The notes beneath the pieces were generated by a model that made no database searches, was not told where the DNA came from, and saw only the letters and a program-made list of their open reading frames with translations. From NCBI RefSeq assembly GCF_003334335.1, contig NZ_QOWQ01000018.1: 64,000 bases of DNA; one strand, written 5' to 3'. The DNA comes from Escherichia coli (lineage in GTDB: Bacteria > Pseudomonadota > Gammaproteobacteria > Enterobacterales > Enterobacteriaceae). Positions 14,112 through 64,000 of this stretch are shown in pieces. Numbering within the stretch: the stretch's first letter is position 1; every line of letters starts with the position of its first letter. Both the position numbers and the translations under genes were made by a program.

Positions 14112-17100
14112 ATGAAAAGAATGTTAATCAACGCAACTCAGCAGGAAGAGTTGCGCGTTGCCCTTGTAGATGGGCAGCGTCTGTATGACCTGGATATCGA
14201 AAGTCCAGGGCACGAGCAGAAAAAGGCAAACATCTACAAAGGTAAAATCACCCGCATTGAACCGAGTCTGGAAGCTGCTTTTGTTGATTACGGCGCTGAA
14301 CGTCACGGTTTCCTCCCACTAAAAGAAATTGCCCGCGAATATTTCCCTGCTAACTACAGTGCTCATGGTCGTCCCAACATTAAAGATGTGTTGCGTGAAG
14401 GTCAGGAAGTCATTGTTCAGATCGATAAAGAAGAGCGCGGCAACAAAGGCGCGGCATTAACCACCTTTATCAGTCTGGCGGGTAGCTATCTGGTTCTGAT
14501 GCCGAACAACCCGCGCGCGGGTGGCATTTCTCGCCGTATCGAAGGCGACGACCGTACCGAATTAAAAGAAGCACTGGCAAGCCTTGAACTGCCGGAAGGC
14601 ATGGGGCTTATCGTGCGCACCGCTGGCGTCGGCAAATCTGCTGAGGCGCTGCAATGGGATTTAAGCTTCCGTCTGAAACACTGGGAAGCCATCAAAAAAG
14701 CCGCTGAAAGCCGCCCGGCCCCGTTCCTGATTCATCAGGAGAGCAACGTAATCGTTCGCGCATTCCGCGATTACTTACGTCAGGACATCGGCGAAATCCT
14801 TATCGATAACCCGAAAGTGCTCGAACTGGCACGTCAGCATATCGCTGCATTAGGTCGCCCGGATTTCAGCAGCAAAATCAAACTGTACACCGGCGAGATC
14901 CCGCTGTTCAGCCACTACCAGATCGAGTCACAGATCGAGTCCGCCTTCCAGCGTGAAGTTCGTCTGCCGTCTGGTGGTTCCATTGTTATCGACAGCACCG
15001 AAGCGTTAACGGCCATCGACATCAACTCCGCACGCGCGACCCGCGGCGGCGATATCGAAGAAACCGCGTTTAACACTAACCTCGAAGCTGCCGATGAGAT
15101 TGCTCGTCAGCTGCGCCTGCGTGACCTCGGCGGCCTGATTGTTATCGACTTCATCGACATGACGCCAGTACGCCACCAGCGTGCGGTAGAAAACCGTCTG
15201 CGTGAAGCGGTGCGTCAGGACCGTGCGCGTATTCAAATCAGCCATATTTCTCGCTTTGGCCTGCTGGAAATGTCCCGTCAGCGCCTGAGCCCATCACTGG
15301 GTGAATCCAGTCATCACGTTTGTCCGCGTTGTTCTGGTACTGGCACCGTGCGTGACAACGAATCGCTGTCGCTCTCTATTCTGCGTCTGATCGAAGAAGA
15401 AGCGCTGAAAGAGAACACCCAGGAAGTTCACGCCATTGTTCCTGTGCCAATCGCTTCTTACCTGCTGAATGAAAAACGTTCTGCGGTAAATGCCATTGAA
15501 ACTCGTCAGGACGGTGTGCGCTGTGTAATTGTGCCAAACGATCAGATGGAAACCCCGCACTACCACGTGCTGCGCGTGCGTAAAGGGGAAGAAACCCCAA
15601 CCTTAAGCTACATGCTGCCGAAGCTGCATGAAGAAGCGATGGCGCTGCCGTCTGAAGAAGAGTTCGCTGAACGTAAGCGTCCGGAACAACCTGCGCTGGC
15701 AACCTTTGCCATGCCGGATGTGCCGCCTGCGCCAACGCCAGCTGAACCTGCCGCGCCTGTTGTAGCTCCAGCACCGAAAGCTGCACCGGCAACACCAGCA
15801 GCTCCTGCACAACCTGGGCTGTTGAGCCGCTTCTTCGGCGCACTGAAAGCGCTGTTCAGCGGTGGTGAAGAAACCAAACCGACCGAGCAACCAGCACCGA
15901 AAGCAGAAGCGAAACCGGAACGTCAACAGGATCGTCGCAAGCCTCGTCAGAACAACCGCCGTGACCGTAATGAGCGCCGCGACACCCGTAGTGAACGTAC
16001 TGAAGGCAGCGATAATCGCGAAGAAAACCGTCGTAATCGTCGCCAGGCACAGCAGCAGACTGCCGAGACGCGTGAGAGCCGTCAGCAGGCTGAGGTAACG
16101 GAAAAAGCGCGTACCGCCGACGAGCAGCAAGCGCCGCGTCGTGAACGTAGCCGCCGCCGTAATGATGATAAACGTCAGGCGCAACAAGAAGCGAAGGCGC
16201 TGAATGTTGAAGAGCAATCTGTTCAGGAAACCGAACAGGAAGAACGTGTACGTCCGGTTCAGCCGCGTCGTAAACAGCGTCAGCTCAATCAGAAAGTGCG
16301 TTACGAGCAAAGCGTAGCCGAAGAAGCGGTAGTCGCACCGGTGGTTGAAGAAACTGTCGCTGCCGAACCAATTGTTCAGGAAGCGCCAGCTCCACGCACA
16401 GAACTGGTGAAAGTCCCGCTGCCAGTCGTAGCGCAAACTGCACCAGAACAGCAAGAAGAGAACAATGCTGATAACCGTGACAACGGTGGCATGCCGCGTC
16501 GTTCTCGCCGCTCGCCTCGTCACCTGCGCGTAAGTGGTCAGCGTCGTCGTCGCTATCGTGACGAGCGTTATCCAACCCAGTCGCCAATGCCGTTGACCGT
16601 AGCGTGCGCGTCTCCGGAACTGGCCTCTGGCAAAGTCTGGATCCGCTATCCAATTGTACGTCCGCAAGATGTACAGGTTGAAGAGCAGCGCGAACAGGAA
16701 GAAGTACATGTGCAGCCGATGGTGACTGAGGTCCCTGTCGCCGCCGCTATCGAACCGGTTGTTAGCGCGCCAGTTGTTGAAGAAGTGGCCGGTGTCGTAG
16801 AAGCCCCCGTTCAGGTTGCCGAACCGCAACCGGAAGTGGTTGAAACGACGCATCCTGAAGTGATCGCTGCCGCGGTAACTGAACAGCCGCAGGTGATTAC
16901 CGAGTCTGATGTTGCCGTAGCCCAGGAAGTTGCAGAACAAGCAGAACCGGTGGTTGAACCGCAGGAAGAGACGGCAGATATTGAAGAAGTTGTCGAAACT
17001 GCTGAGGTTGTAGTTGCTGAACCTGAAGTTGTTGCTCAACCTGCCGCGCCAGTAGTCGCTGAAGTCGCAGCAGAAGTTGAAACGGTAGCTGCGGTCGAAC

Positions 17101-60817: not shown

Positions 60818-60905
60818 ACGACAATTTGGTGAGGTGTCCGAGTGGCTGAAGGAGCACGCCTGGAAAGTGTGTATACGGCAACGTATCGGGGGTTCGAATC
60901 CCCCC
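60818..60905 (+). tRNA. serX: tRNA-Ser (anticodon GGA)
   Basis: 88 nt GGTGAGGTGTCCGAGTGGCTGAAGGAGCACGCCTGGAAAGTG...GGTTCGAATCCCCCCCTCACCGCCA: D-arm GAGTGG, anticodon loop CCTGGAAAG, long variable arm, T-arm GGTTCGAATCC, encoded CCA. Confidence 0.95.
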
Positions 60906-60911
60906 CTCACC

Positions 60912-60945
60912 GCCAGATTACAAGCGCATGTTATTGTTTAACATG
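60912..60945 (+). terminator. Rho-independent terminator of serX
   Basis: Hairpin aagcgcatgtt-attgttt-aacatgcgctt followed by a T-run, 7 nt after the tRNA 3' end. Confidence 0.8.
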
Positions 60946-61064: not shown

Positions 61065-61910
61065 CTATACTGACAGCATGTCAGGATAGTGTTCTGCAAT
61101 AATATCATTCAGTCGCTCAACCAGTTCCGGTTTTCTGAACGTGATATACGCGGAGCCCTTCTTAAAGTATCTGATACTGAACATCTCATCTTCATAGTCC
61201 TCTTTCCCCTGAACAGACTGGATGTGCTCATCCAGATGAATGGTGATGTTTTCCCGATTGTCGGGGATCGGTTTGCCGCTGAACAGGTGCAGCATTCTTT
61301 CCAGGTCGGTAAGTCGATCTGCCTGTTGCCCGCTGTTCAGATGAAATCCCCACCGGTCCCACCTCACCAGATTGTTGACGATAATTTTACTGCCAAATTT
61401 ACAGGGTGAGTTGGTTTTGTAATTCCAGCTCAGCACTCTGAAGACGTTGATCACTCCTCGCTCAAACACGTCATCCTTATTCTGGTGCAGTTGCTCAAAT
61501 GTGCTCCAAATGTTCGCTTCACTGATTTCCGGAAAGTTATCGTACTCCAGTGAGCGGTACCATGTATCACGGGCCTGCGCATCCATTAATGACAGCATCC
61601 CGGAACGTTGCATCAGGCCACGCCAGATTTCGCGATCGAGATTGCGGGTGATGGCTTTCATTGCGGTTTCCGGTTTCTCCATGAGCCAGCAGCCGCAGCG
61701 AAAATCCTGTTTCATGGCCCAGTCCCGGGCGGTTTTACCGCCAATGCTTTCCGTCAGTACCGAGATTTCAGCCAGTTGCCGGATAAGTGTGTCGATTTGC
61801 AGCAGCGCACTCTTTCGTACAGCCAGAATGTGGCGGATACTGGTTGAGCAGATAACGTCCGTATGTCCGTTGACCAGTTCCGGGCGGGAGATTGTGATAT
61901 CTGACATCAT
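61065..61910 (-). CDS. Uncharacterised 281-aa island protein (possibly DUF4942-like)
   Basis: Intact ORF MMSDITISRPELVNGHTDV... with Shine-Dalgarno aaggaaaaacg before the ATG; no recognisable catalytic motif; family assignment from memory of island annotations, not searched. Confidence 0.6.
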   Translation of the reverse strand: MMSDITISRPELVNGHTDVICSTSIRHILAVRKSALLQIDTLIRQLAEISVLTESIGGKTARDWAMKQDFRCGCWLMEKPETAMKAITRNLDREIWRGLMQRSGMLSLMDAQARDTWYRSLEYDNFPEISEANIWSTFEQLHQNKDDVFERGVINVFRVLSWNYKTNSPCKFGSKIIVNNLVRWDRWGFHLNSGQQADRLTDLERMLHLFSGKPIPDNRENITIHLDEHIQSVQGKEDYEDEMFSIRYFKKGSAYITFRKPELVERLNDIIAEHYPDMLSV

Positions 61911-61991
61911 CGTTTTTCCTTTTGGTTTATAAACGAAAACGCCAGCCGTATTCAGGCTGGCGTCAGTGGAATGAAGTCTGGTGAGTAAGAC

Positions 61992-62189
61992 TCACCTGTT
62001 CTGTTGCAGAAGCTGCTGTTGGCGCAGGGTACGGATATCTTCCCTGGCCTGTTCAATGCAGGGCAGCAGTGCTGCTGAATCCGTTTTATCCTCATCGTTG
62101 TCGAAGATAATCCCTGATTCGCAGTCAATATTGTCCTGCAGCCACGCAATCAGAATATCCAGCGCCGTTTCTGTGGTTAATGATTTCAT
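61992..62189 (-). CDS. Small 65-aa island protein (possibly DUF957-like)
   Basis: ORF MKSLTTETALDILIAWLQDNIDCESGIIFDNDEDKTDSAALLPCIEQAREDIRTLRQQQLLQQNR, 16 nt downstream of the YeeW-like stop; acidic, helical; unsearched. Confidence 0.45.
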   Translation of the reverse strand: MKSLTTETALDILIAWLQDNIDCESGIIFDNDEDKTDSAALLPCIEQAREDIRTLRQQQLLQQNR

Positions 62190-62205: not shown

Positions 62206-62694
62206 TTACCAGTCGAAAGTGGGGAACCCCGGCAGACATTCTGCGCCGGCGTCCAGATGAATGAGACTGACGCCATAACGCCGGGTGAGAGTGACGACCA
62301 GACGACGGAACGTTCTTGACAGGCCCAGGCGTTTAAGCCGCAGAACCGGGTACGACCATGCATCGGTACGTAACAGATAGCCGCTGCCTGTAAAATGAAT
62401 CCATTCTGTTTCGCCGTCGTCATTAGTCTGGTGTGACAGCGAGTACAGCCAGGCGTTGTCCGTTTCCGTGATATGTGCGGTACTGCAACGTATGCCGGTA
62501 AGGGTTGTTAACGGTGGTGGTGTACTGGTTGACTGCTGGTCGGATTTATCGACCACGCGGAGTGAATAACCGTTTTCAGAGACCTTGTTAATCAGTTCAG
62601 CGAGATTAACACCATCGACGTCAACGACAATGCGCCCCATGTTCAGCGCCTGCATGTTAATGCTGTCGGCTTCCGGCGTCAGGGAAAGGTTCAT
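62206..62694 (-). CDS. YeeW-like protein (DUF5983-type), full length
   Basis: 162-aa [57 protein letters not shown]...; its ATG overlaps the CbtA stop as ATGA; position matches yeeW downstream of cbtA. Confidence 0.6.
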
Positions 62695-63074
62695 TGTTTC
62701 GCCTCCTCCGGATGCTTGCCCAGGGTAATGTTATTTACCATTCTGTAATTGTCCCGGGTCATCAGGCCGGTCGCCCTGCGAGCCCGGAGAATATCAATGC
62801 TGTTGATTAACTGAGACGACGGGGCTCCTGCGCTGAATCCCGGCTGGTCAGTTCGTACCAGCACGTATTTTTCAACGAGAAAGTTCACCGCGTCACACAG
62901 TGAAATCCCTGCCTCAATATGCTGCTCAATCACACGTTCATCAGCGAACGGTGTGTCATTCAACGTAAGGCCATAGTGCTGGTCCAGCAGTCGGGTGAGC
63001 AGTGTCTGCCAGATTTCAACCGGAGACGGGCAGCGCGATGCCGCCCGTACGTGTGTGTCGGGTAATGTTTTCAT
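62691..63074 (-). CDS. cbtA: CbtA-family toxin of a type IV toxin-antitoxin system (YeeV/YkfI/YpjF-like)
   Basis: Start at ATG 63074 gives 127 aa [70 protein letters not shown]..., near-identical to remembered YeeV-family toxins. Confidence 0.9.
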
Positions 63075-63154: not shown

Positions 63155-63535
63155 CTATTCCGGAGGGTTACTTTCCGTTTCGGTCGCAGGATAAACAGCC
63201 AGATAAACGTAACCACAGGAGCCGAGGGTGTCGGCATCGCAGGTCAGCCCTTTCGCATACAGCGTGACGGTATGCTGATGCCGGGGATTCAGTTCACCGC
63301 TGGTGAGCATGAGTTCCAGTTGTTTCATCAGCAGTGGAAAAGCCTGGTCCAGATGGTATGCATCCGCATTGCTGAACCGGCCTCTGATACCGGCGCGGTC
63401 TGCAAGGTAATGCAACCGGTTACCCTCCTGCACCAGACGTGCCCCGAAACAGGGCGTCACGGTGCAGGGCAGCCCCCACCAGGGGCGGTCTTTGTTGTCG
63501 TCGGGAAGCGTTGTCCCGGGGAGTGTGTCTGACAC
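63155..63535 (-). CDS. cbeA: CbeA-family antitoxin of a type IV toxin-antitoxin system (YeeU/YafW/YfjZ-like)
   Basis: Probable GTG start at 63535 gives [54 protein letters not shown]... matching the remembered YeeU N-terminus ([13 protein letters not shown]...). Confidence 0.88.
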
Positions 63536-63545
63536 GATAAAATCC

Positions 63546-63923
63546 TCACAGAAAATCGGTGAATGATAGTTTAACGATGACGGGGCAGCCGGCGCGCAGA
63601 CCGGCTTCGGTGAAGGTATATTCGTTGATGAGAAGGGCCTCATCCACAGCGGCGTCTGAGGTCAGCCAGTCGTACTCGTTTTCCAGTTGACGGTACAACC
63701 AGAAGGCCAGGTCGCGCAGGGCTTCGCTGACTGCGGCTTCCGCATCGGTTGTCATAGCCTGACCAGTCGGACTGTTCCGGGTGACGGTGATATCCATGCA
63801 GTACGGATGGCAGTAACGTCCCCGGTGGTGGATTTCAGCCTGCAGTTGCCAGAAGTTACGCTTCTGCACCGCCTGCAGGGCATCCGCGATACGATGAAGC
63901 TCACGGTCCTGCGGGGCATACAC
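63546..63923 (-). CDS. Hypothetical protein upstream of cbeA (yeeT/ykfH position); start uncertain
   Basis: 125-codon ORF opening with GTG at 63923 (an in-frame stop lies 9 nt upstream); internal ATGs would give 83- or 68-aa products; stop is 8 nt before the cbeA start. Sequence not recognised. Confidence 0.4.
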   Translation of the reverse strand: MYAPQDRELHRIADALQAVQKRNFWQLQAEIHHRGRYCHPYCMDITVTRNSPTGQAMTTDAEAAVSEALRDLAFWLYRQLENEYDWLTSDAAVDEALLINEYTFTEAGLRAGCPVIVKLSFTDFL

Positions 63924-64000
63924 CCATAAGCGCTAACTTAAGGGTTGAACCATCTGAAGAATGCGACGCCTCGGTGCCTCGTTAAGACGATGCCTCGCGT

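Follow-up and report, generated by a model that had tools for sequence, protein, structure and literature searches.

The CbtA/CbeA, YkfI/YafW and YpjF/YfjZ pairs of E. coli K-12 behave as two-gene toxin-antitoxin systems. The K-12 homologues of the toxin described here owe their toxicity to FtsZ/MreB binding and are subject to rescue by the antitoxin; the copy described here is 88% identical to K-12 CbtA. K-12 CbtA is reportedly toxic, and CbeA is said to rescue without full-length YeeW, the product of the gene that follows cbtA; YeeW would therefore be required neither for toxicity nor for neutralisation. In three-gene toxin-antitoxin systems the third gene is needed for antitoxin stability or regulation and co-occurs with the pair.

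YeeW belongs to the DUF5983 family (PF25638 and PF19419), for which Aec77 is an older name. Homologues are orf54 of the SRL island and L0008 of the LEE island (PMC6980539). The association of DUF5983 with CbtA has been published (mBio 2023, bioRxiv 2026): the gene is described as "always located downstream" of CbtA_toxin in every sequence type except ST11, and toxin-antitoxin-mining pipelines give it as the CbtA "partner" (PMC10790755). The K-12 transcription unit is given as yeeRST-cbeA-cbtA-yeeW (PMC7660256).

Layout of the cbeA-cbtA-yeeW locus

The locus lies in the end of an island that occupies the right end of the window (the whole 64-kb stretch of E. coli DNA that was analysed). Every island gene is on the minus strand. 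The features, in window coordinates, are:

63546-63923, minus strand: C-terminal part of a hypothetical gene
63155-63535, minus strand: cbeA, YeeU-family antitoxin (type IV) of 126 aa; PGAP places a GTG start in the 99.95%-identical locus L001
62691-63074, minus strand: cbtA, long YeeV-type toxin, 127 aa (Pfam CbtA_toxin PF06755)
62702-62709, minus strand: putative Shine-Dalgarno sequence GGAGGAGG, within the last cbtA codons, read from the sequence
62691-62694, minus strand: ATGA stop/start overlap of the cbtA TGA and the yeeW-like ATG
62206-62694, minus strand: YeeW-like gene (DUF5983 family protein), 162 aa plus stop
62518-62685, minus strand: N-domain DUF5983_N, residues 4-59 (Pfam PF25638, E 7e-31)
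62209-62490, minus strand: C-domain DUF5983, residues 69-162 (Pfam PF19419, E 5e-22)
61992-62189, minus strand: 65-aa ORF, "DUF957 domain-containing protein" (PGAP)
61938-61964, minus strand: terminator-like hairpin followed by a T-rich tail, 3' of the DUF957 ORF (consensus match only)
61065-61910, minus strand: DUF4942 gene (methyltransferase-like), 281 aa, the last gene of the island
60828-60915, plus strand: tRNA-Ser(GGA), the island boundary adjoining ghrA-ycdX-ycdY

The flanking pair has the CbtA/CbeA type IV layout, with a CbeA_antitoxin gene (product matching PF06154, E 1.9e-54) preceding a CbtA_toxin gene on the same strand. The Pfam match of the toxin (E 2.2e-59) covers residues 1-113, and the remaining 14 residues (114-127) form a tail that encodes the ribosome-binding site and start of the downstream gene. 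The DUF957 ORF begins 16 nt past the yeeW-like stop and gave no Pfam-A match in a Pfam search; it may correspond to AntiFam ANF00264 of a 2026 preprint. The hairpin that follows is a possible end of a cbeA-cbtA-yeeW-DUF957 transcript, and an Rfam search of the region detected the tRNA alone. The PHROG matches of the DUF4942 product include a DNA methyltransferase family.

An identical operon is annotated in the 99.95%-identical locus L001 of E. coli 503025 (NZ_CP025892). The gene order given there by NCBI is DUF932, antirestriction, yeeS (JAB/RadC), yeeT (DUF987), a hypothetical gene and cbeA, then "TA system toxin CbtA family protein", "DUF5983 family protein", DUF957, DUF4942 and tRNA-Ser. 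The window gene shares its two domains, its length of 162 aa, the 4-nt overlap after cbtA and the downstream DUF957 and DUF4942 genes with the described DUF5983/YeeW loci and shows no material difference from them; the window copy sits at tRNA-Ser(GGA) by ghrA and carries an IS421 insertion upstream of cbeA. Many E. coli and Shigella proteins match its product at 83-97% identity. A megablast search with the 1.1-kb region found 13,578 places, under the NCBI name "DUF5983 family protein", in 4,945 of 5,426 complete E. coli genomes. When seven E. coli loci were sampled over the identity range, cbeA, cbtA, DUF5983, DUF957 and DUF4942 were intact in six, each with a 4-nt cbtA/DUF5983 overlap by PGAP coordinates; the seventh is a LEE-adjacent remnant in which cbtA and DUF5983 are both pseudogenes. 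The window gene is a typical full-length DUF5983/YeeW, and its arrangement is already known and routinely annotated.

The cbtA-yeeW junction and the constraint on YeeW

The plus-strand letters tcat at 62691-62694 read ATGA on the minus strand, where the toxin TGA occupies 62693-62691 and the next ATG 62694-62692. This is the overlap that the initial annotation had reported, and the YeeW-like ORF of 162 aa is, as it also stated, uninterrupted from 62694 to 62206. The putative Shine-Dalgarno sequence (62709-62702) lies 7 nt from the yeeW-like ATG. Conservation of the overlap, which that annotation had put forward as a check, is seen in the six sampled E. coli loci mentioned above and in 17 of 21 distinct intact loci across Enterobacterales, all of which have a start codon at -4, counted from the end of the stop codon of the toxin. 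Fifteen of the overlaps are ATGA (three with an additional ATG at -1) and two, from Erwinia and Winslowiella, are TTGA. Three of the four other loci have a 13-nt spacer containing GGAG and one has an aberrant toxin end. A purine run of the GGAGG or GGGG type is located 6-9 nt upstream of the start in most of the 21. Judged from these alignments, the recurrence of the overlap exceeds chance, the 21 intact loci differing by a median dS of ~1.1.

The sequence features expected for coupling, a stop/start overlap and a ribosome-binding site inside the upstream ORF, are thus present and conserved. The YeeW-like gene is probably in the same operon as the toxin, and the 4-nt overlap with its embedded Shine-Dalgarno sequence would fit coupled translation. 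Ribosomes ending translation of a long-type cbtA would first pass, within the codons of the 14-residue tail, a Shine-Dalgarno sequence of the GGAGG type and would then arrive at the ATGA overlap, and YeeW output should therefore track toxin translation. In a predicted RNA fold of the junction the Shine-Dalgarno sequence is partly paired (z = -1.4, not significant). A 4-nt overlap is the commonest bacterial operon junction and alone is no sign of common function.

Selection was assessed on codon alignments in which 21 intact copies represent E. coli, E. albertii, Citrobacter, Kluyvera, Trabulsiella, Serratia, Erwinia and Winslowiella, with pairwise Nei-Gojobori dN/dS. The ratio is 0.21 for the whole DUF5983 gene (median dS 1.1), with 0.17 in the N-domain, 0.51 in the linker and 0.17 in the C-domain; cbtA as a whole gives 0.18, and the 22-residue C-terminal segment of the toxin (residues 106-127) gives 0.42. 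The substitution pattern marks the 162-aa ORF as a real gene on which purifying selection acts, at a level close to that of the toxin, and the earlier view that it is no remnant holds.

The C-domain ends in F-D-W. In an alignment of 32 diverse members, including the window copy, residues H74, D79, G105, S126 and the terminal W162 are invariant, and they are kept even in relatives at 26-45% identity. An alignment-based AF2 model has a pLDDT above 90 for most of residues 66-162 and low confidence for the N-domain; a single-sequence AlphaFold model was unusable (pLDDT 34). Length is held at 162-163 aa across genera, and in a protein search that returned 1,051 clusters almost every one measures 162-163 aa (mode 162), under the name DUF5983 or Aec77. 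These observations bear on the idea that the ORF is spurious or non-functional and stays open by chance or through the constraint of an overlapping feature. It could draw on the many truncated copies and fragment clusters of DUF5983 and on the neighbouring 65-aa ORF with its lack of a Pfam-A match, but it is at odds with a dN/dS of ~0.2 across a dS of ~1.1, with the invariant residues in distant relatives, with the confident C-domain model and with the steady length. It is scarcely conceivable and is excluded by the selection data.

The family is narrow. Searched exhaustively, a set of 1.84 billion representative proteins yielded only 216 matches, and among the sources found each named one is an enterobacterial genus. 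Profile searches of NCBIfam and PADLOC returned no match for the YeeW-like protein, and PHROGs gave a single match, to a family without assigned function. In a sequence-profile search of the PDB nothing matched, and a search of AFDB50 returned family members only. A glyoxalase-like assignment, made in a 2024 preprint, is unsupported at the scores obtained.

Toxin-antitoxin pairs with and without yeeW

The yeeW gene of K-12 (in CP4-44) encodes 64 aa and also begins in an ATGA overlap with cbtA. It is orthologous to the window gene over the first ~49 codons, which hold the N-domain. Homology to the window locus ends at 62548 (~codon 49) and resumes at 62074 within the DUF957 gene; a deletion therefore removed linker and C-domain together with ~38 codons at the start of DUF957. 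The description in the initial annotation of a short, probably truncated K-12 gene was accurate, and alignment with the window locus identifies a deletion as the cause. The allele keeps exactly the N-domain, in an open ORF. The same annotation had named ykfL and ypjK as further K-12 genes for alignment. The first encodes a hydrophobic peptide, lies at another place in CP4-6 and shows no YeeW similarity, and the 10-kb region around ypjF holds no annotation of the second; nothing YeeW-like follows ykfI or ypjF in K-12. The gene after ykfI, ykfN, resembles the N-terminus of DUF4942 and appears to be a remnant.

The K-12 deletion junction was found at a coverage of at least 80% in 3,881 of the 5,426 complete E. 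coli genomes, mostly at an identity of at least 99%, and accompanies an intact cbeA-cbtA pair in these genomes. As read from the alignments, most E. coli carry the K-12 allele as the product of a single old deletion. By blastn against the same 5,426 genomes, cbtA occurs at 14,770 places in 5,034 genomes, the N-part of yeeW at 12,653 places in 4,921 genomes and the C-domain at 7,748 places in 3,901 genomes (~72%). About 39% of the E. coli yeeW copies are thus without the C-domain (12,653 against 7,748 places), most of them through one event, the K-12 deletion; these place counts are BLAST-based, and many places are inherited copies of a single event.

A survey across species took the toxin, not YeeW, as its anchor. 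It covers 93 non-redundant CbtA places, drawn from the best 80 of 136 confirmed species-representative loci, 10 loci from viral contigs, K-12 and the window, and separates two toxin types. In this sample with the best 80 of the 136, the long toxin (YeeV-type, 122-127 aa, with a C-terminal tail) accounts for 36 places, with both YeeW domains at 22, the N-domain only at 5 and neither at 9; the short toxin (YkfI/YpjF-type, 109-113 aa) accounts for 57 places, with both domains at 0, the N-domain only at 0 and neither at 57. The two-domain form is seen only after a long-type toxin (22/36 against 0/57, best 80 of the 136 included). The 22 include one frameshifted locus (L012) that matches both domain models, so the intact count is slightly generous.

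Fourteen of the 36 long-type loci (again with the best 80 of the 136) have lost yeeW wholly or partly and kept the toxin ORF and the upstream cbeA. The five N-domain-only places of this best-80-of-136 sample are the K-12 allele and a truncation in Buttiauxella. The nine long-type places with neither domain, from the same best 80 of 136 and added loci, comprise five in Kosakonia/Enterobacter with a 7-codon remnant (MTLALIV*), one with DUF4942 straight after the toxin and three at which the island ends. Nearly all yeeW-less or truncated loci surveyed, the best 80 of the 136 included, have an open toxin ORF with cbeA upstream. The initial annotation had named routine truncation in otherwise intact loci as a finding that would speak against YeeW as a third component. 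In copy numbers such truncation is indeed routine; counted as independent events, loss is recurrent and is not the rule.

Obligate co-occurrence of yeeW with the toxin-antitoxin pair, as in a tripartite system, is not what was found. The claim that YeeW is a functional third component is left unsupported by the K-12 truncation in 3,881 genomes, by the 14 of 36 long loci that lack an intact copy and the 57 short loci that have none (best 80 of the 136 included), and by the toxin-free C-domain of about 2,700 plasmids. As in the HigBA-SecB-like toxin-antitoxin-chaperone, omega-epsilon-zeta and PaaR-PaaA-ParE systems, a third gene, here probably co-transcribed, lies beside the pair; unlike in those systems, intact pairs often have no yeeW or a truncated one next to them, and the core domain of YeeW also occurs toxin-free.

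The main rival explanation, a rather unlikely one, is that YeeW serves as a genuine third part of the long-type CbtA/CbeA systems, with an N-domain that contacts CbtA, CbeA, FtsZ or MreB and with stoichiometric co-translation that modulates toxicity or links toxin expression to C-domain activity. Conservation of the overlap and the Shine-Dalgarno sequence across genera would agree with this, as would the restriction of the two-domain form to long toxins (22/36 against 0/57, best 80 of the 136 included), an N-domain undetected elsewhere and under purifying selection (dN/dS 0.17), the open N-domain ORF retained by the K-12 allele and the listing of DUF5983 as CbtA "partner" by toxin-antitoxin mining (PMC10790755). 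Against it, toxin and antitoxin are intact where yeeW is truncated, frameshifted or gone, and the better-conserved C-domain exists toxin-free in plasmids. The three K-12 pairs behave as two-gene systems, and the 4-nt junction is too common among operons in general to weigh in its favour. A more specific form, in which long-type CbtA systems are three-part, the N-domain docks on CbtA, CbeA or their cytoskeletal targets and 1:1 co-translation through the ATGA ties the toxin to a plasmid-derived effector, is clearly unlikely. If it were true, the N-domain-only allele of K-12 would be a functional minimal version and not debris.

The C-domain in plasmid leading regions and a probable role of YeeW

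Distant members of DUF5983 consist of the C-domain alone (~100 aa) or are 188-aa proteins with a different N-part. Pfam detected no DUF5983_N in the 188-aa plasmid forms (hhalign probability 0.9%), and among the copies examined the N-domain was found only in those linked to CbtA. The distant members have no CbtA in their surroundings. In one context DUF5983 is accompanied by DUF932, NikA and a relaxase, in another, on a plasmid, it is followed by DUF932 and an IncFII RepA, and in a third the genes are DUF932, LPD29, DUF5983, SLT, TraM, TraY and TraA. A tblastn search with one stand-alone member found 2,726 plasmids. Klebsiella accounts for 2,366 of them, and 2,231 of the 2,726 are classed as conjugative. 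The order on pKP4 is N6-DNA-methylase, DUF932 and DUF5983, then SLT and traM, which places the gene at the distal end of an F-type leading region. On a Pantoea plasmid DUF5983 lies a few genes past psiA, a hok-like gene and an antirestriction gene.

The stand-alone protein of Klebsiella pKP4 (WP_011977736) has a C-domain that is homologous to that of YeeW and keeps its invariant H, D, G, S and final W; the protein shares DUF932, methylase and antirestriction neighbours with the island gene. Identity is ~30-45% for the stand-alone plasmid proteins, which differ from YeeW in having no DUF5983_N and no adjacent CbtA/CbeA and in their position beside SLT and traM. As a gene of plasmid leading regions the C-domain is independent of the toxin. 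Location in a leading region applies to these plasmid homologues; the window copy is chromosomal, and the neighbours it has in common with them are only DUF932, antirestriction and RadC, which lie with DUF987 upstream of cbeA as annotated in the 99.95%-identical locus. Phage genomes are essentially without DUF5983, with one dubious record in the phage collection searched, and viral contigs yielded only 10 CbtA loci. The label "prophage" for the islands is accordingly unsupported by the DUF5983 gene, which is near-absent from phage genomes.

YeeW is probably a real accessory protein of enterobacterial mobile elements, optional to the toxin-antitoxin pair and with a role that is likelier to be element-related than to concern toxin control. 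The two-domain protein would be encoded by the third gene of an island operon cbeA-cbtA-yeeW(-DUF957). Its C-domain would be an autonomous module of enterobacterial mobile elements, and in the long-CbtA islands a protein of this kind may have been extended by a small N-domain and come to lie, translationally coupled, after the toxin. YeeW would not be obligate in the toxin-antitoxin mechanism, as the pair persists without the full-length gene. Because the C-domain occurs alone at the end of leading regions, on F-type and other conjugative plasmids, beside DUF932, antirestriction and methylase genes, and the same gene set is present in the island, an accessory role for the element is the most likely one, for example in establishment or in handling the host or its defences, with the gene riding in a toxin operon. 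Taken together, the data point to an optional passenger and not to an obligatory third member of the system.

A narrower version of this explanation, rather than a strict alternative to it, would make the C-domain an anti-defence or establishment factor that acts on host defence or DNA-entry processes, and the island copy a fixed relic of a leading region that belonged to a conjugative or integrative element. It is consistent with the position of the C-domain at the distal end of leading regions beside DUF932, N6-methylase, antirestriction, psiA and hok-like genes, with the typing of 2,231 of 2,726 carrier plasmids as conjugative, with the same neighbours in the island and with the near-absence from phage genomes. 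Its basis, however, is location, and the protein has no similarity to known anti-defence proteins; the silence of PADLOC is uninformative here, the scope of that resource being defence and not anti-defence. A literature search returned no paper tying DUF5983 or DUF932 to leading-region anti-defence. As a specific proposal it is very doubtful.

For the accessory protein that we favour, "dispensable" at a K-12-type locus holds only for the C-domain, because the allele retains the N-domain. The contrasts that YeeW offers, between long and short toxins, between full-length and K-12 deletion alleles and between toxin-linked and toxin-free C-domains, could guide experiments. The N-domain was found only in toxin-linked copies and is as constrained as the C-domain, which runs counter to the favoured explanation and would fit a toxin-related role.

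Toxin types and the CbtA tail

CbtA-family toxins fall into two types. The long one (YeeV-type, 122-127 aa) has a C-terminal tail beyond the Pfam domain; the short one is of the YkfI/YpjF type (109-113 aa). A DUF5983 gene such as yeeW is found downstream of long-type toxins only and never of short ones in the survey of 93 non-redundant CbtA places, which includes the best 80 of 136 confirmed species-representative loci. Both the ribosome-binding site and the start of yeeW are located within the tail:
62691-62732, minus strand: residues 114-127 of CbtA, outside the Pfam domain
The C-terminal end of the toxin evolves faster than the remainder, with a dN/dS of 0.42 for residues 106-127 as opposed to 0.15 for residues 1-105 (21 intact loci).

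Decayed neighbours of the toxin

In five Kosakonia/Enterobacter loci (L036, L038, L039, L044 and L045) the TAATG stop/start junction is retained right after the cbtA stop and yeeW is reduced to seven codons (MTLALIV*). This loss is an independent and older event, and the toxin alongside is intact. Two genes in the CP4-6 region of K-12 (L003) were also compared:
L003 5151-5213: ykfN, a 21-codon pseudogene after ykfI
L003 8554-8775: ykfL, a hydrophobic peptide
The similarity of ykfN to the N-terminus of DUF4942 indicates that CP4-6 would once have carried a toxin-DUF4942 arrangement, which occurs at about 13 of the 57 short-type loci of the same survey (again with the best 80 of 136). ykfL was rejected as a YeeW homologue and is an unrelated hydrophobic peptide.

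Flanks of the operon

A small ORF starts 16 nt past the stop of the yeeW-like gene, with no obvious Shine-Dalgarno sequence found ahead of its start:
61992-62189, minus strand: 65-aa ORF, named 'DUF957 domain-containing protein' by PGAP
It has no match in Pfam-A, even at E <= 10, and is probably the same entity as AntiFam entry ANF00264, argued in a 2026 preprint to be a real protein encoded beside DUF5983 (bioRxiv 2026). At the other end, the final 75 nt of the window (63926-64000) depart from the otherwise 99.95% identical E. coli 503025 locus. This stretch is the end of an element that occurs in many copies, with 8,422 places spread over 2,144 E. coli genomes, and in another record the same end adjoins an IS421 (IS4-like) transposase gene. 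Judged from these matches, a copy of IS421 appears to have inserted some 390 nt upstream of cbeA, within the hypothetical gene there, and could alter transcription of the cbeA-cbtA-yeeW operon.

DUF5983 on plasmids and doubtful hosts

On F-type conjugative plasmids, the majority of them from Klebsiella, the leading region ends with a stand-alone DUF5983 gene (L108 6120-7303; L018 1478-3308). It is preceded by DUF932 and followed directly by an SLT gene and traM, and approximately 2,700 plasmids carry it (tblastn with one member). Among the genome_contigs records, near-identical enterobacterial CbtA loci also occur in assemblies that carry the labels Collinsella, Lachnospiraceae, Clostridiales and Chryseobacterium (L021, L023, L035, L037 and L072), which most likely reflects contamination or mis-binning of those assemblies.
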